From: Escherichia coli
Lineage (GTDB): Bacteria > Pseudomonadota > Gammaproteobacteria > Enterobacterales > Enterobacteriaceae
Length of the DNA stretch: 64,000 nt
Assembly: GCF_009931435.1 (NCBI RefSeq)
Contig: NZ_CP043414.1
Strand: one strand, 5' to 3'
A model generated the notes under the pieces. The model was given only the letters and a program-made list of their open reading frames with translations, did no database searches and was not told the origin of the DNA. Each line of letters begins with the position of its first letter. The first letter of the stretch is position 1. This document shows positions 12,552 through 61,428 of this stretch, piece after piece. Both the position numbers and the translations under genes were made by a program.

Positions 12552-12854
12552 ATATATTCTGAAAAAATATGCCTGCTCTTGCATGAGAGTGGGCATATTG
12601 TCATGCTGACAGGATACTCACATAAGGAAAGGCAGAATTTCCAGACGTCGTTGTATATTTTCATTTGCTTTAATAAATTCCATTTTTGGTAAATTCAGCA
12701 TTATGTTATTAGCGATGAGCAAGACCAATCATTAACCAAGTTCTCTTCAGAATGTAATGAAAAATGTGAAGTGCATTTCTTTTTTAAAAATTTTTTACCC
12801 TATTATTTCTTATCAAATTAACATTGCCCTTAATTATAAGAAAGGAGAATATAA

Positions 12855-13703
12855 ATGAACAACATATTAGGCTCATCAATTAATATGCCCTGTACACTTT
12901 TCGAAACTATTACTTTATTCGATGATTTCTCTGCTGATGATATGCAGTATGGGGATATGGAAGAACAAGATTTTCTCTCACTCGGCTTAAGCGACATCTC
13001 TGCAAAAGTTGATCCTTACCGCCTCATTAAATACCATTTTCCTGGGCCGAATTCTACTTATGGTGCTTTTAGTATTCCAACTTCTGGAACAAAAATATCA
13101 CAAAGTGAATGTATTGATATTTTATTTGCAGAAATGAAAGATCTGGCAAAAATGTTTTCCTTTTTTGGACAATACAAAACACTCATCCAGGATCTGATTG
13201 ATCATTTTAGATATGGAAATGGCAACAGTTTCCATAGCCAGGAATTGAACTTATCTTTTCATGAACGAATAAACAAATATGATTATAATAGCCCAATACG
13301 TGTAATCAAAGAATGTATCGAAAATGATATTTCTTCAACACCTACGATAGGATACCGGCCTCTTCTCCTACAAAAGATTAAGACCGAATTACTTTCATCA
13401 AGACTAAATAAATTCAATGATTTTAAAGATAATTTTAATGGCCTGGGAATCAGCATTCATGATATCTCAGCTCAAAAAATATCTCTTTTAAATTTTCAAA
13501 AATATCCTATGGGCTGGAGCGCTACCATTCATTTCATAGCACAAGACCACTTTGGTTTGGATGTGACTGATATAAAAAACAAGATTTACAACAAGTATAG
13601 ATTTTTTCGCATATGGTTCTTTTTACAACGGCATAAAGACTTTGCTTTCAAACCTTTTTTTACCAATTTTAACACTATCGAAAGAATCGAAAATTATCTA
13701 TGA
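12855..13703 (+). CDS. hypothetical protein (282 aa), accessory; no family recognised
   Basis: Strong SD aaggag 7 nt upstream of ATG; no signal peptide; acidic N-terminal region; AT-rich codon usage (about 35-38 % GC in sampled 60-mers versus about 50 % in flanking core genes); stop overlaps the next gene's ATG (ATGA). Confidence 0.65.
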   Translation: MNNILGSSINMPCTLFETITLFDDFSADDMQYGDMEEQDFLSLGLSDISAKVDPYRLIKYHFPGPNSTYGAFSIPTSGTKISQSECIDILFAEMKDLAKMFSFFGQYKTLIQDLIDHFRYGNGNSFHSQELNLSFHERINKYDYNSPIRVIKECIENDISSTPTIGYRPLLLQKIKTELLSSRLNKFNDFKDNFNGLGISIHDISAQKISLLNFQKYPMGWSATIHFIAQDHFGLDVTDIKNKIYNKYRFFRIWFFLQRHKDFAFKPFFTNFNTIERIENYL

Positions 13704-14197
13704 AAAGCAAACTCCAGAAAATTATATTATATTTATTTCTTCTATGCTGCATCTATAATTTATGGACATTGCGTCCTGTACAGATTTTGTATACATACTC
13801 TGATGCTGGCAATTCAGTCTTTCTGGTCGTTGATCATCTGCCATGGACTGATAGCGATAAAATAAATTGGTATCTGAAGCATCAGGATGAAATTAAAAGT
13901 CAAAATCCCCTACCAGAAGGTAGTTGGCATACCTGGTATGTTATTGATATCGGTAATGGCTTCACTGACTATAAAAAATATATCGAAGGGCCGTATGAAG
14001 ATCTCTACTGTTTCCCGACGATTAAGAGCAATGATAATTGCATCGTAAAAAACTATTTAATGGTTATTAATGAATATCCTTACCGTAATACTCATTTTTT
14101 TATTGCTGATAACAATGAGTATCAACTAACCCAGGAAAATAAGATAGAGCGAGTGTTCAACCCGCATGACTTTGAAAAAGACAATTTTCAGCAATAA
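13700..14197 (+). CDS. hypothetical membrane-anchored protein (165 aa), accessory
   Basis: ATG overlaps upstream stop (translational coupling). N-terminus MKSKLQKIILYLFLLCCIYNLWTL is a basic N-region plus one hydrophobic helix (signal peptide or signal anchor); the rest is a Trp/Tyr-rich soluble domain; AT-rich. Confidence 0.6.
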   Translation: MKSKLQKIILYLFLLCCIYNLWTLRPVQILYTYSDAGNSVFLVVDHLPWTDSDKINWYLKHQDEIKSQNPLPEGSWHTWYVIDIGNGFTDYKKYIEGPYEDLYCFPTIKSNDNCIVKNYLMVINEYPYRNTHFFIADNNEYQLTQENKIERVFNPHDFEKDNFQQ

Positions 14198-14232
14198 GCC
14201 GGATAAAGAACAATCTTTACCCGGCATTTATA

Positions 14233-16317: not shown

Positions 16318-16351
16318 AACAACCGTTTTGTGTCACTGAATATGGTGCAGA

Positions 16352-16456
16352 TGCCGGATGCGGCGCAAACGCCTTACCCGGCCTACATGACATTGCAATT
16401 TATTGAATCTACATGATTTTGTAGGCCGGATAAGGTGCGCAGCACCGCATCCGGCA
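16352..16456. repeat. BIME (two inverted REP units)
   Basis: gatgccggatgcggcgcaaacgccttacccggcctaca and its inverted partner tgtaggccggataaggtgcgcagcaccgcatccggc between the convergent yigE and uvrD genes. Confidence 0.6.
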
Positions 16457-16459
16457 ACG

Positions 16460-22271: not shown

Positions 22272-24299
22272 ATGCACTATCGCAATGTGGTTTGTTTGTT
22301 GTCTTTTTTAGTTCCGTCAGCGTGGGGATGCTCGCTCGGTGAACCTGATCATAATATTTACCAGAAACAGGGAAAAGGCGTGGTATACCTGCGCCCTAAT
22401 GAAGAGACAAATCTTTCGTTACCGGAAGTAAATTACCAGCGACTGCGTCGTTTACCTGATTTATTCATTGTTCCTGACACCCAGGACGATGGGGAAAAAG
22501 AACCGCCGTTAAACGACCTTACCACCGATTATATTGATCAGGGCGCATGGGCCTGGTATCCAAATTATGCTTACTTTAGCGATGGCCGTTTTGTTATTTA
22601 TGCGGGCAAGATTGTACAAAATCCATCTGGTTATCCACCGGTCGATGTAGCCTCGTTCCATTCATGGGGCGATTTTGCCGTCGATAAAAACAGCATTTAT
22701 TACAAAGGCCAACGGACAGATGAAAATGGCGGCAAGCAACGCGTCGATGAAAAAACGCTGCGCAAAGTAGGATTAGGTAGCCGTTGGATGCCTGATCGGC
22801 TGGGATTGGTGCTACGTGACGCGCATTTTCTTTATATCGATGGGCACCGTTTTGATAACCCAGAGAGTTTTTCCGTGATCGCGCAAAAATCCTGGGGTCA
22901 ACAAGGGAAATTCGCTTCAACGTTTTTTCCCTGCATTGCCTACCCCTTTGGCCCGTGGGATATGCTTACCCGCACACGAACAAAGTTGCTGATCAATGGA
23001 GAGCAACTGGATGCAGATCCGGACAATTTTTCTGTCGTTCGCTGGATGCCCGGCACCCTGTTTAGCTGGCGTGATAAACACGGCGAGCATCGTAAAGTCA
23101 TTGATCAGGTTCGTTTGGCAAGGAATGAAGATATATCCCGGCAATGTGACAACTTTACGCTGTTAGAAAAAAAGGTGTTCTGGCGCAAGGGGCCAGATTG
23201 TGAGCAGGAAGAATTACCCAGTCTCGACCCGGAGCAGTTTCACCCGATCAGTGACATCGTGGCGCAGTATCAGGACAAGTTGTATGCAATCAGTAAGACC
23301 CCCTTCGGTGAAAATCAGTTGGAGATCATCACCCTGGATAACCCGAATCTGATCATCAATAAACGTTTTAATGCCGGAAGGCATCATGGCTATTTAATCA
23401 CCCGATCAACAAATTGGGACGGACATGAGAAAGACGGTTTACAGGTGTTTGAATCCGTTGGCCCACTGATACTGCTGGACTACCGTGTGCCGAATGAAGC
23501 AGATGCACACCGTGGCAATAACCCGCATTACAAAAAATGGTTTGCTCGCGACGATCGTTACGTTTATGCATTCGATGGTGCGCAGCTTTGGCGTTACCCT
23601 ACGCAATATCCCAAAGCGGCACGTATCAAAGCCGCTAAAGACGACTGGCTGAACGTCAGCCTTAGCCAATTGGACGGTGAGATAATGAAAGATGGCTCAT
23701 TTACTCCCACTGGCATCAAGCACACATCCTCTTTAAAACCCGCCAAGGCATACGAAGATGGGGACAATGAATCTTCATTTATCGTAAATAAATCGGGAGT
23801 AGGCTGGCGAAAAGCGCTTTCACCCGACCTGCAATGGAGTGAGTGGCATTACCTGGAAGGCATTTATCCAAAAAAGTTACATCTGATTACCGAACGTATT
23901 GCACAGTACAAAAACCAACTCTACGTCGTCAGGCGCTCGCATTTTGGAGAAGATCGGCTAGAAATCATAGAGTTGGAGTCATCTTTGCCCATCAAAAATA
24001 AACCGATAAATACGGGCAAGGAGCGTCATTACTTTCTGCAAAGTACCCGACAAAAACAGGATGTGCAGGTATTCACCAGCAGCGGTGCGCTGATAGCAAC
24101 GGAGCGCTTTGCTTATGACGATAGCTATGTCTACACCTGGATTGACGATCAGCTTTATCGCACACCCTCCCCCTGCCCAGCGAAAACATACGTCAGAGAA
24201 AAGAATGTCCGTGAAATTCATAACAGCGACATTATTATTCCGGTGACGGAGGAATCGTGCCGGAACGCAGCAGCAGACGGGCAAACTTTGAAGCCCTGA
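22272..24299 (+). CDS. hypothetical exported repeat protein, DKNYY-like motifs (accessory)
   Basis: Longest ORF starts at GTG 22242; ATG at 22272 has an AGGA SD about 8 nt upstream and gives signal peptide MHYRNVVCLLSFLVPSAWG followed by Cys. Internal duplication (QYQDKLYAISKTPFGENQLEIITLD versus QYKNQLYVVRRSHFGEDRLEIIELE). Motif DKNSIYYKG. Start choice is uncertain. Confidence 0.65.
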   Translation: MHYRNVVCLLSFLVPSAWGCSLGEPDHNIYQKQGKGVVYLRPNEETNLSLPEVNYQRLRRLPDLFIVPDTQDDGEKEPPLNDLTTDYIDQGAWAWYPNYAYFSDGRFVIYAGKIVQNPSGYPPVDVASFHSWGDFAVDKNSIYYKGQRTDENGGKQRVDEKTLRKVGLGSRWMPDRLGLVLRDAHFLYIDGHRFDNPESFSVIAQKSWGQQGKFASTFFPCIAYPFGPWDMLTRTRTKLLINGEQLDADPDNFSVVRWMPGTLFSWRDKHGEHRKVIDQVRLARNEDISRQCDNFTLLEKKVFWRKGPDCEQEELPSLDPEQFHPISDIVAQYQDKLYAISKTPFGENQLEIITLDNPNLIINKRFNAGRHHGYLITRSTNWDGHEKDGLQVFESVGPLILLDYRVPNEADAHRGNNPHYKKWFARDDRYVYAFDGAQLWRYPTQYPKAARIKAAKDDWLNVSLSQLDGEIMKDGSFTPTGIKHTSSLKPAKAYEDGDNESSFIVNKSGVGWRKALSPDLQWSEWHYLEGIYPKKLHLITERIAQYKNQLYVVRRSHFGEDRLEIIELESSLPIKNKPINTGKERHYFLQSTRQKQDVQVFTSSGALIATERFAYDDSYVYTWIDDQLYRTPSPCPAKTYVREKNVREIHNSDIIIPVTEESCRNAAADGQTLKP

Positions 24300-28581: not shown

Positions 28582-29318
28582 GTATCTTGGTCACCCGCCC
28601 GTCTCCCGCTGGAGAAGAGTTAGTGAGCCGTCTGCGCACACTGGGGCAGGTGGCCTGGCATTTTCCGCTGATTGAGTTTTCTCCGGGTCGACAATTACCG
28701 CAACTTGCTGATCAACTGGCAGCGCTGGGGGAGAGGGATCTGTTGTTTGCCCTCTCGCAACACGCGGTTGCTTTTGCCCAATCACAGCTGCATCAGCAAG
28801 ATCGTAAATGGCCCCGACTACCTGATTATTTTGCCATTGGACGGACCACCGCACTGGCGCTACATACCGTAAGCGGACAGAAGATTCTCTACCCGCAGGA
28901 TCGGGAAATCAGCGAAGTCTTGCTACAATTACCTGAATTACAAAATATTGCGGGCAAACGTGCGCTGATATTACGTGGCAATGGCGGTCGTGAGCTAATT
29001 GGGGATACCCTGACGGCGCGCGGTGCTGAGGTCACTTTTTGTGAATGTTATCAACGATGCGCAATCCATTACGATGGCGCAGAAGAAGCGATGCGCTGGC
29101 AATCCCGCGAGGTGACGACGGTCGTTGTTACCAGCGGTGAAATGTTGCAGCAACTCTGGTCGCTGATCCCACAATGGTATCGTGAGCACTGGTTACTACG
29201 CTGTCGACTATTGGTCGTCAGTGAGCGTTTGGCGAAACTCGCCCGGGAACTGGGCTGGCAAGACATTAAGGTCGCCGATAACGCTGACAACGATGCGCTT
29301 TTACGGGCATTACAATAA
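28578..29318 (+). CDS. hemD: uroporphyrinogen-III synthase
   Basis: 246 aa; 4-nt overlap with the hemC stop; conserved hemCDXY order. Confidence 0.93.
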
Positions 29319-29339
29319 CTCTCATAACAGGAAGCCATA

Positions 29340-30545
29340 ATGACGGAACAAGAAAAAACCTCCGCCGTGGTTGAAGAGACCAGGGAGGCCGTGGACACCA
29401 CGTCACAACCTGTCGCAACAGAAAAAAAGAGCAAGAACAACACCGCATTGATTCTCAGCGCGGTGGCTATCGCTATTGCTCTGGCGGCGGGCGTCGGTTT
29501 GTATGGCTGGGGTAAACAACAGGCCGTCAATCAGACTGCCACCAGCGATGCCCTGGCTAACCAACTTACGGCACTGCAAAAAGCCCAGGAGAGCCAAAAA
29601 GCCGAGCTGGAAGGCATTATCAAGCAACAAGCTGTACAGCTTGAGCAAGCGAATCGTCAGCAAGAAACGCTGGCAAAACAGCTGGATGAAGTCCAACAAA
29701 AGGTCGCGACTATTTCCGGCAGCGATGCTAAAACCTGGCTGCTGGCTCAGGCTGATTTCCTGGTGAAACTCGCCGGAAGGAAGCTGTGGAGCGATCAGGA
29801 CGTCACGACCGCTGCAGCGTTGCTGAAAAGTGCAGATGCCAGCCTGGCGGATATGAATGACCCGAGTCTGATTACCGTTCGTCGGGCAATTACCGATGAT
29901 ATCGCCAGCCTTTCTGCGGTATCGCAGGTGGATTATGACGGCATCATCCTTAAGCTGAACCAGCTTTCTAATCAGGTAGATAACCTGCGTCTGGCCGATA
30001 ATGACAGCGATGGTTCACCGATGGATTCCGACGGTGAAGAGCTTTCCAGTTCCCTCAGCGAATGGCGTATCAATCTACAAAAAAGCTGGCAGAACTTTAT
30101 GGACAACTTCATTACGATTCGCCGTCGTGATGACACCGCCGTACCACTGTTAGCACCGAATCAGGATATCTATCTGCGCGAAAATATTCGCTCCCGCCTG
30201 CTGGTCGCGGCACAAGCCGTACCGCGTCATCAGGAAGAGACTTACCGCCAGGCGCTGGAGAACGTCTCCACCTGGGTTCGTGCTTATTACGATACTGATG
30301 ATGCCACCACCAAAGCGTTCCTCGACGAGGTGGATCAGCTAAGTCAGCAAAATATCTCGATGGATCTCCCGGAAACCCTGCAAAGCCAGGCGATGCTGGA
30401 AAAACTGATGCAGACTCGCGTGCGTAACCTGCTGGCACAACCGGCAGCGGGGACAACGGAAGCTAAACCTGCACCTGCACCTGCACCTGCACCTGCACCT
30501 GCACCGCAAGCTGATACTCCGGCAGCCGCGCCGCAAGGAGAATAA
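29340..30545 (+). CDS. hemX: HemX (putative uroporphyrinogen-III C-methyltransferase-like membrane protein)
   Basis: 401 aa; N-terminal TM segment, coiled-coil-like Q/A/E-rich region, C-terminal (PA)n repeat. Confidence 0.9.
30468..30497. repeat. hexanucleotide tandem repeat (CCTGCA)x5 inside hemX, encoding (Pro-Ala)n
   Basis: cctgcacctgcacctgcacctgcacctgca read directly; in-frame so copy-number change keeps the frame. Confidence 0.8.
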
Positions 30546-30547
30546 CC

Positions 30548-31744
30548 ATGCTAAAAGTGTTGTTGCTCTTTGTTTTGCTGATTGCGGGGATAGTGGTTGG
30601 CCCGATGATTGCCGGTCATCAGGGTTACGTATTGATTCAGACCGACAACTACAATATCGAAACCAGCGTCACTGGCCTGGCGATTATTTTGATTCTGGCG
30701 ATGGTAGTGCTGTTTGCCATTGAGTGGCTACTGCGGCGGATCTTCCGCACAGGCGCACACACCCGTGGGTGGTTTGTCGGACGTAAGCGTCGCCGTGCCC
30801 GTAAGCAGACCGAACAGGCGCTGCTGAAACTAGCGGAAGGCGATTATCAGCAAGTTGAAAAGCTGATGGCGAAAAATGCCGATCACGCTGAACAACCGGT
30901 GGTGAACTATCTGCTGGCTGCCGAAGCCGCGCAACAACGCGGTGATGAAGCACGCGCCAACCAACATCTGGAACGCGCAGCGGAGCTGGCCGGCAACGAC
31001 ACAATTCCGGTAGAAATCACCCGTGTACGTCTGCAACTGGCCCGTAATGAAAACCATGCAGCACGTCACGGCGTTGATAAGCTGCTGGAAGTTACGCCAC
31101 GCCATCCGGAAGTATTACGTCTGGCGGAACAGGCGTATATCCGCACTGGTGCATGGAGTTCGCTGCTGGATATCATCCCATCAATGGCAAAAGCCCACGT
31201 TGGCGATGAAGAGCATCGTGCAATGCTGGAACAACAGGCATGGATTGGCCTGATGGATCAGGCGCGTGCCGATAACGGTAGCGAAGGTTTGCGTAACTGG
31301 TGGAAAAACCAAAGCCGGAAAACGCGTCATCAGGTGGCGTTACAGGTGGCAATGGCGGAACATCTTATTGAATGTGACGATCATGATACTGCCCAGCAAA
31401 TTATCATCGACGGCCTGAAACGCCAGTATGACGATCGCCTGCTGCTGCCGATCCCGCGTCTGAAAACCAATAACCCGGAACAGCTGGAAAAAGTGCTGCG
31501 CCAACAGATCAAAAACGTGGGCGATCGCCCGTTGTTGTGGAGCACACTGGGTCAGTCGCTGATGAAGCACGGCGAATGGCAGGAAGCATCGCTCGCCTTC
31601 CGCGCGGCGCTGAAACAACGTCCGGACGCCTACGATTACGCATGGCTTGCCGACGCGCTGGACAGACTGCACAAGCCGGAAGAAGCCGCAGCGATGCGTC
31701 GCGATGGCTTGATGCTAACGTTGCAGAACAACCCGCCACAGTAG
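30548..31744 (+). CDS. hemY: HemY (TPR-containing inner membrane protein, heme biosynthesis-associated)
   Basis: 398 aa; two N-terminal TM segments then TPR-like repeats; starts 2 nt after the hemX stop. Confidence 0.93.
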   Translation: MLKVLLLFVLLIAGIVVGPMIAGHQGYVLIQTDNYNIETSVTGLAIILILAMVVLFAIEWLLRRIFRTGAHTRGWFVGRKRRRARKQTEQALLKLAEGDYQQVEKLMAKNADHAEQPVVNYLLAAEAAQQRGDEARANQHLERAAELAGNDTIPVEITRVRLQLARNENHAARHGVDKLLEVTPRHPEVLRLAEQAYIRTGAWSSLLDIIPSMAKAHVGDEEHRAMLEQQAWIGLMDQARADNGSEGLRNWWKNQSRKTRHQVALQVAMAEHLIECDDHDTAQQIIIDGLKRQYDDRLLLPIPRLKTNNPEQLEKVLRQQIKNVGDRPLLWSTLGQSLMKHGEWQEASLAFRAALKQRPDAYDYAWLADALDRLHKPEEAAAMRRDGLMLTLQNNPPQ

Positions 31745-31789
31745 CTCTTTCTCACCCGGAGGCAAGCACCTCCGGGGCCTTTCTGATAT

Positions 31790-31998
31790 ATAAAAAAACG
31801 CCTGCTCTTATTACGGAGCAGGCGTTAAAACAGGTCTGTATGACAACAAGTGGGTGCTTCACTCAACGTTGTGTCCATGGTGTCTGATGAGGCATAAGCG
31901 ACATCTGTCAGTGGACGATAAGCACCGTAAACGGCTCTGCGTCATTCCGGAGTTTATGAGGCACTAAGGCGAACATAAGAGATGGAATGAGCATCTAC
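31790..31998 (-). ncRNA. glmZ: GlmZ small regulatory RNA
   Basis: Minus strand reads GUAGAUGCUCAUUCCAUCUCUUAUGUUCGCCUUAGUGCC ... ending in hairpin AAGAGCAGGCGUUUUUUU, matching the remembered GlmZ sequence; located between hemY and aslA as in K-12. Confidence 0.8.
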
Positions 31999-32422
31999 TC
32001 GTTTATTATGCCACAGAGAACCGGGAAATAACATCCCTTAACACTTGTTATGAGATAATTCTGTAATCCTCTTTGCTTCCTGAGTAATAACTTCCTGAGT
32101 GAATATTTCTCCTGCGCACGATTCTACACATATATATAATGAATAATAAAAGTCATTCAATTAATAACATATATATTAATTGCTGTTAAAACTAAAAACA
32201 GCATCAATAATCAACGCGATATAACATCACCGCCTTACATATCACCTGCGCCAGAGGTAGGATTGAAAACGCTCTCCTGATTTTCCAATTCATTATCTGG
32301 ATAAATAAATAATTTATTTTCATCACTATTATTTATGCAATCATCCTGTCAGGGAGAGGGATCTCAATTATCAATGCTTAATTACGTCAACATTTTGACG
32401 ACATGAAACCGGAGCATTTTGC

Positions 32423-34078
32423 ATGGAATTTTCGTTTTCACCCAAACTTCTTGTTGTGGCTGTCGCCGCCGCTCTTCCACTCATGGCCAGCGCAGCAGAT
32501 ACCCCGTCAACCGCCACCGCACGCAAAGGCTTTGCCGGATACGATCACCCAAACCAGTATCTGGTTAAACCGGCGACCACTATTGCCGACAACATGATGC
32601 CGGTGATGCAGCATCCTGCACAAGACAAAGAAACCCAGCAGAAACTGGCGGAACTTGAGAAAAAAACCGGTAAGAAACCGAACGTGGTTGTTTTCTTGCT
32701 GGATGATGTGGGCTGGATGGACGTTGGCTTTAACGGCGGCGGCGTGGCGGTGGGTAACCCTACACCAGATATCGACGCCGTTGCCAGCCAGGGGCTGATT
32801 TTAACTTCGGCGTATTCTCAACCGAGTTCTTCCCCAACCCGCGCCACGATTCTCACCGGACAATACTCCATCCACCACGGCATTCTGATGCCGCCAATGT
32901 ACGGGCAACCGGGCGGTCTGCAAGGGTTAACCACGCTGCCACAGTTGCTGCACGATCAGGGCTACGTCACCCAGGCTATCGGGAAATGGCATATGGGGGA
33001 AAACAAAGAGTCGCAGCCGCAGAACGTTGGCTTTGATGATTTCCGCGGCTTTAACTCGGTATCTGATATGTATACCGAATGGCGTGATGTTCATGTCAAC
33101 CCGGAAGTCGCCCTGAGCCCGGATCGTTCTGAATACATCCAAAAACTGCCGTTCAGCAAAGATGACGTTCATGCCGTGCGCGGCGGTGAACAGGAAGCCA
33201 TTGCCGACATTACGCCGAAATATATGGAAGATCTGGATCAACGCTGGATGGAATATGGCGTTAAGTTCCTCGACAAGATGGCGAAGAGCGATAAGCCTTT
33301 CTTCCTCTATTACGGCACTCGCGGCTGTCACTTCGATAACTACCCGAACGCCAAATATGCGGGTAGCTCTCCGGCGCGCACCTCTTACGGCGACTGCATG
33401 GTGGAGATGAACGATATCTTCGCCAATCTGTATAAAGCACTGGAGAAAAACGGTCAGCTTGATAACACGCTGATTGTGTTCACCTCTGATAACGGTCCGG
33501 AAGCTGAAGTTCCGCCGCACGGTCGCACACCGTTCCGCGGTGCGAAAGGTTCTACATGGGAAGGCGGCGTTCGTGTGCCAACCTTCGTTTACTGGAAAGG
33601 CATGATCCAACCGCGTAAATCTGATGGTATTGTCGATCTGGCGGATCTCTTCCCTACGGCGCTGGATCTGGCAGGACATCCTGGAGCGAAAGTGGCGAAT
33701 TTAGTGCCGAAAACCACCTTTATTGATGGTGTGGACCAGACATCTTTCTTCCTGGGAACAAATGGTCAGTCTAACCGTAAGGCCGAGCACTACTTCCTCA
33801 ACGGCAAACTTTCTGCTGTGCGTATGGATGAGTTCAAGTATCACGTCCTGATCCAGCAACCGTACGCGTATACCCAGAGCGGGTATCAGGGTGGATTCAC
33901 CGGCACAGTAATGCAAACGGCGGGATCGTCGGTGTTTAACCTGTACACCGATCCGCAGGAAAGCGACTCTATCGGCGTGCGCCATATCCCAATGGGTGTA
34001 CCGCTACAGACCGAAATGCATGCGTATATGGAGATCCTGAAAAAATATCCACCACGCGCGCAGATTAAATCTGATTAA
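32423..34078 (+). CDS. aslA: arylsulfatase-family sulfatase
   Basis: 551 aa; signal peptide; sulfatase signature with the Cys/Ser target motif [11 protein letters not shown]. Confidence 0.93.
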
Positions 34079-34111
34079 GCCGGCGCTATCGCTACATCGG
34101 GCCACACTGAC

Positions 34112-34220
34112 CTTGCCGGATGCGGCGTGAACGCCTTATCCGGCCTACAAGCCTTGCAAATTCAATAAATTGCAGCGTCCTGTAGGCCGGATAAGATGCG
34201 TCAGCATCGCATCCGGCAAT
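34112..34220. repeat. BIME (REP units in inverted orientation)
   Basis: ttgccggatgcggcgtgaacgccttatccggcctaca ... tgtaggccggataagatgcgtcagcatcgcatccggca between the convergent aslA and aslB genes. Confidence 0.6.
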
Positions 34221-34252
34221 CAACCGCAGGCGGCCACAAAATGGCTGCTTTT

Positions 34253-35485
34253 TTACTTATTCACCACCATCAAATGCGCCTGCATAATGTCGCTGGCCGG
34301 GCGACCGTGCGCCAGCAAATCAGCCATTGCTTTAAGATATGGCGGTAGATAGCGGAAATAACGCTGATACCCGGCACACAAATAATTCAGCCCCGGCTTA
34401 CCGCTGGCATCGAGCATAAAGCGGTGTTTCGGGCAGCCTCCCCAACATGCTTTTAACACGTTACAACTGCGACACTGCGCCGGTAACTGCTTAAATTTAT
34501 CTTCTCCAAACACCTGCTGCTGCGGGGAATCTACCATTTCTGCAATTGTTTGCTGAAGCATATTCCCCAGTCGATATTGCGGATAAACATAGTGATCGCA
34601 GGCGTAAACGTCGCCGTTGTGTTCGACAATCACCGAGCGTCCACAAGTCGGCTGATGATGGCAAACCGCACCCGGCGCACCGACAAAATTGGCAAACGCC
34701 CATTCGATATTCATCACGAAAATCTTGCCGACGTCACGTTTGATCCAGTGGTCAAAAATTGCCACCAGAAACTCACCGAACTCATCGGGGCGCACCGACC
34801 ATTCTGTCAGTTCCCCCTGAATATCACCAGGCGCATGTAATTTCAGTCCATTGCGGGCAGCTGTTTCATCAGCCAGGCGCTCCACCACCGGAATAAACTG
34901 GATGAACTCCACGCCTGCATCACGCAAAAACGCATATACCTGCAACGGTTGCTGCGCGCTGGTGCGGTTGACGCAGGTCAGCACGTTATAGTCGACATGA
35001 TGTTTTTGCAGGAGCGTCAGGGCACGCATCACCAGCTTATGCGTGGGTCTGCCACCTTTGGTCACGCGATATTGATTGTGGATCTCAGCCGGACCGTCCA
35101 GCGATAACCCAACAAGAAAATGATTTTCTGCCAGAAATGCACACCATTCATCATCAAGCAGCACACCGTTAGTCTGAAAGCTGTTACTTATCTTCCTGCC
35201 AGCACCATATTTCGCCTGTAGCGCCACGGCACGGCGGTAAAAATCCAGCCCGAGTAACGTTGGTTCGCCGCCCTGCCAGGTAAAAGCCACTTCGTTTTGG
35301 GGTTCGCTGGCAGCGATATAGTGACGGACATACGCTTCCAGCGTGTCATCGTCCATATGCGCAACTGGCTTTTCGCGGTAAAGGGATTGTTTTTCGAGAT
35401 AAAAACAGTAGTCACAGTTCAGATTACAATCGGAACCGCTTGGTTTCGCCATCACATGAAAAGCACGCGTTGGAACCTGTAGCAT
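34253..35485 (-). CDS. aslB: anaerobic sulfatase-maturating enzyme homolog (radical SAM)
   Basis: Start trimmed to ATG at 35485 (MLQVPTRAFHVMAKPSGSDCNLNCDYCFY, CxxxCxxC radical-SAM motif); about 410 aa. Confidence 0.9.
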   Translation of the reverse strand: MLQVPTRAFHVMAKPSGSDCNLNCDYCFYLEKQSLYREKPVAHMDDDTLEAYVRHYIAASEPQNEVAFTWQGGEPTLLGLDFYRRAVALQAKYGAGRKISNSFQTNGVLLDDEWCAFLAENHFLVGLSLDGPAEIHNQYRVTKGGRPTHKLVMRALTLLQKHHVDYNVLTCVNRTSAQQPLQVYAFLRDAGVEFIQFIPVVERLADETAARNGLKLHAPGDIQGELTEWSVRPDEFGEFLVAIFDHWIKRDVGKIFVMNIEWAFANFVGAPGAVCHHQPTCGRSVIVEHNGDVYACDHYVYPQYRLGNMLQQTIAEMVDSPQQQVFGEDKFKQLPAQCRSCNVLKACWGGCPKHRFMLDASGKPGLNYLCAGYQRYFRYLPPYLKAMADLLAHGRPASDIMQAHLMVVNK

Positions 35486-52352: not shown

Positions 52353-52682
52353 TTACGCCAGGTTAGCGTCGAGGAACTCTTTCAACTGACCTTTAGACAG
52401 TGCGCCCACTTTGGTTGCCGCCACTTCACCGTTTTTGAACAGCAGCAGAGTCGGGATACCACGGATGCCATATTTCGGCGCAGTGCCAGGGTTTTGATCG
52501 ATGTTCAGTTTTGCAACGGTCAGTTTGCCCTGATATTCGTCAGCGATTTCATCCAGAATCGGGGCGATCATTTTGCACGGACCGCACCACTCTGCCCAGA
52601 AATCAACGAGGATCGCCCCGTCCGCTTTGAGTACATCCGTGTCAAAACTGTCGTCAGTCAGGTGAATAATTTTATCGCTCAT
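52353..52682 (-). CDS. trxA: thioredoxin 1
   Basis: Start trimmed to ATG at 52682 ([39 protein letters not shown]), 109 aa with WCGPC active site. Confidence 0.97.
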
Positions 52683-52812
52683 ATATAACTCCACAGGAAT
52701 AAGCCTGGCGTGTTGGTTTCGTTGTTGGTGTAACATTAACCAACTAAAGGTTGACTTTATTTCACCGGATACGCTTTCGTAAAGCAATAGTAAGCTGATA
52801 TTCTACCACACT

Positions 52813-60537: not shown

Positions 60538-61428
60538 TTGGATTTACGCGATCTGAAAACCTTCCTGCATCTGGCGGAAAGCCGCCATTTTGGCCGCAGC
60601 GCGCGGGCGATGCACGTTAGTCCATCCACGCTTTCCCGACAGATTCAGCGCCTGGAAGAAGATCTCGGTCAGCCGCTGTTTGTGCGCGATAACCGTACGG
60701 TGACGCTGACCGAAGCGGGCGAAGAACTGCGCGTTTTCGCCCAGCAAACACTGTTGCAGTATCAGCAATTGCGCCACACCATCGACCAGCAAGGACCGTC
60801 GCTCTCTGGCGAATTACATATCTTCTGCTCGGTGACCGCTGCCTACAGCCATCTGCCGCCGATTCTTGACAGATTCCGCGCGGAACACCCGTCAGTGGAG
60901 ATCAAACTCACTACCGGTGATGCGGCGGATGCGATGGAAAAAGTGGTGACAGGGGAAGCGGATCTGGCGATTGCCGGGAAGCCGGAGACGCTGCCCGGTG
61001 CGGTGGCGTTTTCGATGCTGGAGAATCTGGCAGTGGTGCTGATCGCGCCTGCCCTACCGTGCCCGGTGCGTAATCAGGTTTCGGTAGAGAAGCCGGACTG
61101 GTCTACAGTGCCGTTTATCATGGCAGATCAGGGGCCGGTGCGCCGCCGCATTGAGTTGTGGTTCCGACGCAATAAAATCAGTAACCCGATGATTTACGCC
61201 ACGGTTGGCGGGCATGAAGCGATGGTTTCGATGGTGGCGCTCGGCTGCGGCGTGGCATTGTTGCCGGAAGTGGTGCTGGAAAACAGCCCGGAACCGGTGC
61301 GTAACCGCGTGATGATTCTGGAGCGTAGCGATGAGAAAACGCCGTTTGAGCTGGGCGTTTGTGCACAAAAAAAGCGGCTGCATGAGCCGCTGATTGAGGC
61401 TTTCTGGAAGATTTTACCGAACCATTAA
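60538..61428 (+). CDS. ilvY: LysR-family activator of ilvC
   Basis: HTH region [40 protein letters not shown]. Start placed at TTG 60538 to give about 296 aa; the longest ORF's ATG at 60454 would crowd the ilvC promoter. Start is uncertain. Confidence 0.88.

Follow-up and report, generated by a model that had tools for sequence, protein, structure and literature searches.

The AT-rich spacer between glmZ and aslA in Escherichia coli: a divergent control region with a candidate aslA promoter

The small RNA gene glmZ is under sigma54 control in Salmonella and Citrobacter, whereas the E. coli gene is transcribed from one constitutive promoter of the sigma70 type (Gopel et al. 2010, PMC3045617). 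In that study the region from -424 to +32 was fused to lacZ, and the single-promoter status was shown by deletion and point mutation, with the DNA upstream of -40 being dispensable for glmZ. Sigma54, GlrR and IHF elements are absent there, and the E. coli region could not be aligned with sigma54-type promoters. Shimada et al. 2014 (PMC3946193, Table 1) also list the spacer that separates glmZ from the divergent gene aslA, as a type-A spacer with an RpoD-holoenzyme SELEX peak and as the location of an H-NS site in K-12, identified by genomic SELEX, an in vitro method. As regards H-NS in general, long bound regions (>1 kb) cover gene bodies and silence low-GC, horizontally acquired genes, while short regions upstream of operons act as mild modulators with mild repression (Kahramanoglou et al. 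2011, PMC3064808). The aslA gene itself is labelled a 'latent' arylsulfatase in a supplement table. In a K1 strain, LL-37 raised its expression about 3-fold, and it depended indirectly on RpoE. The spacer routinely serves as a neutral integration site.

Here we examined this locus in a 64,000-nucleotide stretch of E. coli DNA, referred to as the window, for which a sequence-only reading had described GlmZ followed by an unusually AT-rich aslA promoter region of the kind bound by H-NS and Fis.

The hemY-glmZ-aslA locus, the glmZ promoter and a candidate aslA promoter

The interval belongs to the hemY-glmZ-aslA locus of E. coli. An 801-base segment around the feature matched 5425 of the 5426 complete E. 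coli genomes, with strain 2013C-4282 as the best match (99.6%) and K-12 at 95.5%. Following the RefSeq annotation of the matching genomes, the order is hemC-hemD-hemX-hemY on the plus strand, aslA (plus), aslB (minus) and then four tRNA genes. The hemY stop is at 31744 (plus) and the 3′ end of glmZ at 31792 (minus), making the two genes a convergent pair with the hemCDXY synteny in place. An intrinsic hemY terminator was read from the sequence at 31755..31784 (plus), with the hairpin CCCGGAGG-caagca-CCTCCGGG and then a T-rich tail; the Term-seq 3′ end assigned to hemY in K-12, 3986647(-), corresponds to about 31783 of the window (Adams 2021 supplement).

GlmZ is encoded on the minus strand (31998->31792) at its full length of 207 nt. 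The RF00083 covariance model of Rfam was matched from position 1 to 214 of 214, with 218.4 bits, where the gathering score is 60 (E = 3e-56), and the 207 nt are 100% identical to those of strain 2013C-4282 and to K-12 glmZ (GlmZ = SraJ, b4456) in all columns, including the glmS-pairing region and the terminator. The sequence-only reading was thus right about the gene, its strand and its coordinates. The terminator scan placed the GlmZ terminator hairpin at 31826->31797 (minus), and the RNase E/RapZ processing site, converted from the internal 3′ end 3986582/3 of K-12 (Term-seq), falls at about 31847 (minus). Given the identity to K-12, the window's GlmZ would be expected to activate glmS translation, to base-pair and to be processed by RapZ/RNase E as it does there. 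An FNR ChIP peak described as '5′ of glmZ/hemY' (Myers 2013), called by 1 of 4 algorithms, is located inside glmZ and outside the AT-rich spacer, and was set aside for spacer regulation on account of that location.

On the other side, the aslA ATG is at 32423, so that glmZ and aslA are divergent. The aslA ORF (32423..34078, plus) encodes an arylsulfatase-family protein of 551 aa in the RefSeq annotation of the matching genomes, and its sulfatase matches in NCBIfam were all below threshold. It is convergent with aslB (35488->34253, minus), which encodes an anaerobic sulfatase maturase scoring 518 bits against TIGR03942 (NCBIfam).

The spacer at 31999-32422 is a divergent control region of both glmZ and aslA and not the upstream region of aslA alone. 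Its description as the aslA promoter region holds insofar as it lies upstream of aslA, yet the 36 bp proximal to glmZ are the experimentally defined glmZ promoter. This sigma70 promoter (32034->32005, minus) consists of a -35 element ATGTTA (32034->32029), 15 nt, and an extended -10 element tggCATAAT (32013->32005). ATGTTA-N15-tggCATAAT matches the published and mutated promoter exactly, with the -10 hexamer at -12..-7 relative to the GlmZ +1, and only one base between the two elements differs from K-12 (C in the window, T in K-12). The -10 element with its TGnG was invariant in 13 sequences from five genera, and the window promoter falls into group III of Gopel et al., the E. coli type with a single sigma70 glmZ promoter. 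No GlrR site (TGTC-N10-GACA, at most 1 mismatch) was found in the spacer of the window, and neither the window nor the aslA-linked loci of other genera have a -24 TGGCAC / -12 TTGCW element (at most 2 mismatches) close to glmZ. A natural IS1-associated deletion in strain PSS-16 has left glmZ with just the first 50 bp of its spacer, followed by IS1 and then by aslA lacking its N-terminus, which is consistent with a small and self-contained glmZ promoter.

Back to back with the glmZ promoter, a distal promoter-like site toward aslA was identified at 32038..32067 (plus), TTAACA-18-TGTAAT, which is the best-match motif that Shimada et al. 2014 (PMC3946193) give for aslA in their Table 1. The conservation of this site is limited to Escherichia. 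A second candidate, at 32234..32263 (plus), has the -35 element CTTACA, an 18-nt spacer and the -10 element TAGGAT, each with 4 of 6 consensus positions. Its motif, TTACA-N18-TAnnAT, was drawn from the alignment first and tested on the loci afterwards; each of the 15 glmZ-linked aslA loci (five genera) has exactly one copy of it, located 130-188 bp ahead of the ATG, and only about 1% of the shuffles of each spacer contain it. TTACA and TA..AT are invariant columns of the cross-genus alignment, and a similar TTACA-N16-TATAGT lies 193 bp upstream of aslA in S. arizonae. Since the motif is conserved in 15 of 15 loci, we propose 32234-32263 as the aslA promoter. A general sigma70 and terminator scan of the spacer showed no enrichment of promoter-like sites. 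From the position of the candidate, transcription of aslA is predicted to start at about 32270 (K-12 about 3,986,160, minus strand), with a leader of about 150 nt; our literature search for a mapped aslA transcription start found none.

The putative leader (32264..32422, plus) contains a 10-nt inverted repeat (GCTCTCCTGA at 32271-32280 and TCAGGGAGAG at 32349-32358) around an AT block (32299-32338), a 24-nt block that is invariant in the Escherichia alignment (32363-32386), and a Shine-Dalgarno GGAG (32411-32414), which, with the ATG, is invariant in all genera. We considered a structured RNA element in this leader and rejected it, as the predicted fold was no more stable than those of shuffled sequences (z = -0.98). 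At E<=10, Rfam gave nothing credible besides GlmZ over 31700-32600. The Term-seq tables report 3′ ends only for GlmZ processing, for the hemY terminator and for a site within aslA, with none in the leader. Small ORFs in the spacer were likewise rejected: the leader ATG at 32335 reads ATG TAA in K-12, and the minus-strand ORFs lie largely in poorly conserved sequence.

Composition and conservation of the spacer

The spacer is 424 bp long with a GC of 0.337, whereas the window as a whole has 0.519; a GC that low is reached by only 1.8% of the 424-bp windows of the stretch. In the GC profile, proposed as a check by the sequence-only reading, 200-bp windows drop to 0.305-0.355, and the AT string that had been quoted as an example lies at 32130-32181 with 9.6% GC. 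To judge how unusual this is, the annotated genes of the closest genome were mapped onto the window by BLAST and the true intergenic regions were defined from them. Those of 100 bp or more, 21 in all, had a mean GC of 0.44 (sd 0.058); among them the glmZ/aslA spacer ranks first in length and has the second lowest GC, about 1.8 sd under the mean, and the pldA/yigI region (GC 0.335) is as low. Thus an AT-rich upstream region was correctly seen, while 'unusually' overstated it. The AT-richness is moderate and within what is normal for promoter regions of E. coli; GC is lowest in another part of the window, a 1.6-kb segment at 12.6-14.2 kb.

Much the same holds for the A/T tracts. A-tracts numbered 15, compared with 10.7 +/- 2.7 in composition-matched shuffles, and TpA steps 42, compared with 46 +/- 5; the latter reach 9.9 per 100 bp in the spacer vs 4.3. 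Both counts are about what composition alone predicts, so that of the many tracts that had been claimed, the quoted AT string stands and the tract count is at expectation. The suggested curvature prediction, made with a rough wedge model, gave an average result: the mean curvature of the spacer ranked at the 67th percentile within the window, local peaks being located at 32181-32201 and 32407-32422, and no 10-11-bp A-tract phasing (AA/TT periodicity) was found in it. Within the limits of that rough model, no strong intrinsic bend was seen.

The window carries a minority allele class of the spacer, with about 1,940 genomes at least 95% identical to it and 3,481 in the K-12/O157 class; the spacer is present in 5423 of the 5426 complete E. 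coli genomes. Compared with the K-12 aslA-glmZ spacer (Fig. 5 of Gopel et al. 2010), it has the same 424-bp length, the same gene arrangement and 94% identity. The first 110 bp beyond the glmZ promoter are nearly identical, and the roughly 26 substitutions are clustered at 32109-32240. The glmZ promoter motif, the candidate aslA promoter, the Shine-Dalgarno sequence and a tandem 15-nt direct repeat are identical in both. This repeat (32076..32105), found by a repeat search, reads CTTCCTGAGTAATAA / CTTCCTGAGTGAATA, and only its second copy is partly retained in other Escherichia species. The most AT-rich and fastest-evolving part is a core at 32109..32190, which contains the quoted AT string; it has 32% invariant columns vs 57% for the whole spacer (7 Escherichia sequences) and cannot be aligned between genera. 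Just downstream of the core and of the first curvature peak, the block AAAAACAGCATCAATAATCAAC (32194..32215, plus), which contains ATCAA-TA-ATCAA, is shared by Escherichia and Pseudocitrobacter and precedes the candidate aslA -35 element by 20-40 bp. The 94% identity of the spacer to K-12, vs 83% at aslA third codon positions, indicates some constraint on it within E. coli, where the whole spacer changes at about one third of the rate of aslA synonymous sites.

With AslA orthologues taken from reference genomes, the order glmZ-aslA-aslB-tRNA was found to be kept in five genera, which include several Escherichia species, Pseudocitrobacter, Kluyvera and Superficieibacter, together with a further enterobacterium. 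The glmZ-linked spacers (14 loci) measure 303-496 bp with a GC of 0.30-0.36, and the GC upstream of aslA is about 0.28-0.36 vs 0.50-0.54 for aslA itself (14 enterobacterial loci). In S. enterica arizonae and in a Citrobacter, aslA-aslB lies between maeB and eutP, and the 450 bp upstream of aslA have a GC of 0.31-0.32; this second chromosomal site indicates that the module moved at some time. As the upstream GC is low in every genus even though the sequences are mostly unalignable, low GC is a conserved compositional property. Islands that are invariant across genera are few, namely the glmZ -10 element with TGnG, the GGAG with the ATG, and TTACA ... TA..AT.

Every aslA-linked glmZ locus examined in the five genera has a TGnG-CATAAT promoter of the sigma70 type, without sigma54 and GlrR elements, whereas the sampled Salmonella and Citrobacter members, the genera in which Gopel et al. 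described sigma54 control of glmZ, carry aslAB away from glmZ. Perhaps, and we offer this tentatively, aslAB came to lie beside glmZ with its own AT-rich promoter region and displaced the ancestral sigma54/GlrR/IHF control region. Such a displacement would explain the constitutive glmZ in Escherichia and likewise in Kluyvera, Pseudocitrobacter and Superficieibacter, in which it is newly seen. The finding of the sigma70-only type at all aslA-linked glmZ loci extends the grouping of Gopel et al. and suggests a route by which GlrR/sigma54 control may have been lost.

H-NS and the competing explanations

Evidence for H-NS at the spacer comes from the SELEX study, the only one that surfaced (PMC3946193) when the full-text literature was searched for H-NS ChIP data in vivo or for aslA expression in hns mutants. 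The AT content is well above average, as in regions bound by H-NS. A single 8/10 match to the H-NS nucleation motif (TCGATAAATT-like) was found at 32298-32307, in the AT block of the putative aslA leader, with about 1.1 expected, and consensus scans of the spacer for GlrR, sigma54, IHF, FNR, CRP, ArcA, Fis, Lrp and H-NS were at or near shuffle expectation. H-NS binding, as proposed by the sequence-only reading, is thus backed by the K-12 SELEX site in a spacer to which the window's is 94% identical, and not by the nucleation motif; Fis binding found no specific support, with one Fis-like site at chance level. A patch of 424 bp with flanks of normal GC belongs at most to the short operon-upstream class of H-NS regions, the one tied to mild modulation, and not to the long silencing class. 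Because the glmZ promoter is constitutive and unaffected by removal of the AT-rich DNA, any H-NS effect would fall on aslA.

We consider it probable, with some reserve, that the spacer is a divergent control region that holds two promoters and a short H-NS patch keeping aslA low. The anatomy of the locus, with its promoters, AT-rich DNA and leader, is well supported, while the role of H-NS is one that we infer from a single in vitro dataset and from composition. At the glmZ edge, a constitutive extended -10 sigma70 promoter would drive glmZ, as shown in K-12. About 235 bp further, a weak sigma70-type promoter would face aslA, to judge from its conservation across genera, ahead of the leader of about 150 nt with its good Shine-Dalgarno sequence. 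Between the two promoters lie about 170 bp of very AT-rich DNA (32068-32233), in which the core at 32109-32190 is weakly constrained in sequence but keeps its low GC in every genus examined. The short H-NS patch, together with the poor match of the -35 and -10 elements to consensus, may hold aslA low until some signal acts, and the glmZ promoter at the edge of the spacer would stay active despite the patch.

A serious rival, which we regard as possible but less probable, is that the composition is passive: AT drift together with the AT needs of promoters would have produced the spacer, and the H-NS binding seen in SELEX would be incidental, with no effect on aslA or glmZ. Several observations agree with this, as the GC is within about 1.8 sd of other intergenic regions and matched by pldA/yigI, the A-tract, TpA and motif counts are at shuffle or chance level, the AT-richest core is the least conserved part, upstream deletion had no effect on glmZ, and the spacer tolerates use for neutral integration. 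Drift accounts less easily for a low GC that is kept in every genus where the sequence is unalignable, and kept again at the second chromosomal site, or for a spacer whose evolution within E. coli is about threefold slower than that of aslA synonymous sites, and H-NS binding was in fact observed in vitro. The notion of aslA as a horizontally influenced gene leads to a different explanation, in which aslA-aslB was acquired and the AT-rich tract belongs to a foreign island silenced by long H-NS filaments. The maeB-eutP location that the pair has in S. enterica arizonae and a Citrobacter, and the scatter of AslA relatives at 55-70% identity over distant phyla, could be read in this way. Yet aslA shows neither the low-GC body nor the patchy presence of a horizontally acquired island: the GC of aslA (0.53) and aslB (0.51) is that of the host, the spacer is near-universal in E. 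coli as counted above (5423/5426), synteny extends over Escherichia, Kluyvera, Pseudocitrobacter and Superficieibacter, and the tract has 424 bp and not the >1 kb of the long silencing class, which covers low-GC gene bodies (PMC3064808). Composition and distribution therefore largely refute xenogeneic silencing, to which we give very little chance, and with it the horizontal origin that had been assumed.

Control of aslA by a hidden element in the spacer, such as an unannotated small protein, sRNA, riboswitch or attenuator, is hinted at by the leader of about 150 nt, with its invariant 24-nt block (32363-32386) and 10-nt inverted repeat, and by small ORFs of 26-40 aa. We regard it as highly unlikely, given that GlmZ is the only Rfam family at E<=10, that the leader fold has a z of -0.98, that Term-seq places no 3′ end in the leader and that the invariant arms yield no covariation evidence. 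As for the ORFs, the only ATG-initiated one in the leader (32335) is ATG TAA in K-12, and those of the minus strand (TTG/GTG/ATG starts) lie largely in sequence that is poorly conserved between genera. Least probable of all is that the AT-rich DNA is the relic of a decayed sigma54 promoter, with GlrR and IHF sites, of the kind that precedes glmZ in Salmonella or Yersinia. IHF-like matches with 1 mismatch were in excess (4 vs 1.2 expected), and a sigma54-like TGACAG-N5-TTGCA was detected on the glmZ strand (32351->32336); this motif, however, sits 353 bp upstream and is without the essential GG, and in K-12 it is degraded further. The absence of TGTC-N10-GACA (at most 1 mismatch) and of a -24/-12 element beside glmZ, and the failure of the E. 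coli region to align with sigma54-type promoters (Gopel et al. 2010, PMC3045617), also stand against a relic.

Comparison with known systems

This is an ordinary and already known locus, in which GlmZ and its promoter are textbook matter and H-NS binding to the spacer has already been tabulated, and it matters little beyond annotation. Two small additions can be made, a testable aslA promoter candidate (32234-32263) conserved in five genera and the sigma70-only promoter type of all the aslA-linked glmZ loci examined. If the tentative displacement of the sigma54 control region by aslAB is correct, the cross-genus promoter and its leader of about 150 nt would be a dedicated control region for the 'latent' sulfatase.

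With K-12 GlmZ (RF00083) the locus shares the model match, the convergence with hemY, the sigma70 promoter and the terminator, and GlmZ itself shows no difference. Like the short operon-upstream regions bound by H-NS, the spacer is an AT-rich patch of less than 1 kb, confined to promoters and flanked by genes of normal GC; unlike them, it has no enrichment of the nucleation motif or of curvature, and H-NS binding here is known in vitro. The sigma54/GlrR/IHF promoters of glmY and glmZ (Yersinia and Salmonella, and glmY of E. coli) drive homologous sRNAs, and the CATAAT -10 element of glmZ resembles the sigma70 element that overlaps them, whereas their -24/-12 elements, GlrR sites and positioned IHF sites are absent from the window and from every aslA-linked glmZ locus examined.

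Divergence around glmZ and short elements in the spacer

The hemX-hemY-aslA-aslB stretch of the window (29200-35000) was found to be 4-7% diverged from K-12 throughout, with aslA, a sulfatase-family gene, matching its K-12 counterpart at 93.8% overall and at 83% of third positions. Amid this divergence, the sRNA gene glmZ is 100% identical to that of K-12. The spacer between glmZ and aslA occurs in two allele classes among E. coli genomes, at which the first (about 1,940 genomes) shows at least 95% identity to the window, and the second (3,481 genomes, K-12 and O157 included) shows 90-95%.

Within the spacer, a tandem 15-nt direct repeat (CTTCCTGAGTAATAA / CTTCCTGAGTGAATA) was identified at 32076-32105, that is, 78-107 bp upstream of the glmZ +1. 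The K-12 copy of the repeat is identical, and other Escherichia species keep only half of it. The region of the repeat was previously reported as dispensable for glmZ expression (Gopel et al. 2010, PMC3045617).

On the minus strand, a sigma54-like motif, TGACAG-N5-TTGCA, with two mismatches and GA in place of GG, was detected at 32351-32336, inside the putative aslA leader and oriented to glmZ. It overlaps two sigma70-like matches (TTGAGA-16-GATGAT and CTGACA-16-AATAGT), and K-12 reads TTACA in place of its TTGCA. Probably, the match is due to chance or marks a spurious antisense promoter.

A weak FNR ChIP-seq peak, labelled "5' of glmZ/hemY", was reported at position 3984609 of K-12 U00096.2 (Myers et al. 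2013); of four peak callers, one detected it, and its motif score is weak. This peak maps to about 31844 in the window, which places it within the glmZ gene and outside the AT-rich spacer.

An IS1A element was also observed at the end of the spacer match in E. coli PSS-16 (locus L003, 4001-5848). There the match runs only to base 50 upstream of glmZ, leaving glmZ and its core promoter intact beside the element, while the adjoining aslA lacks its N-terminus according to the annotation.

AT-rich DNA between rarD and corA and other differences from strain 2013C-4282

The rarD-corA interval holds a 1.6-kb AT-rich segment (12629-14232, GC about 0.30-0.33). It is strain-variable, standing in place of yigG/yigF of strain 2013C-4282, the closest complete genome, and contains one ORF of 282 aa (12855-13703; Pfam DUF3289, 279 bits) and another of 165 aa (13700-14197; DUF943, 96 bits). 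The lowest GC of the window lies in this segment and not in the glmZ/aslA spacer; for acquired, H-NS-type DNA, it is the better candidate of the two.

Further indel differences from strain 2013C-4282 were found at 16318-16459, at 22272-24299 and around 61421-61425: a SAM-hydrolase-family gene is missing, the DKNYY-family gene pair in the lptM-cyaY interval is just 69-90% similar, and three hypothetical genes are missing in the ilvY-ilvA interval. Elsewhere, a TrxA 5' UTR thermometer (Rfam RF02773) was detected upstream of trxA (52653-52752, minus strand), its score of 78.8 bits exceeding the gathering score of 58.

A second chromosomal location of aslA-aslB

In S. enterica arizonae (locus L020, 1-7647) and Citrobacter sp. 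wls619 (L059), the convergent aslA-aslB pair adjoins maeB, encoding the NADP malic enzyme, and in S. enterica arizonae its other flank is eutP. No glmZ was found within 3 kb upstream of the pair in either locus. The maeB-side locus is a second chromosomal location for the aslA-aslB module, and the AT-richness upstream of aslA recurs there, with a GC of 0.31-0.32.
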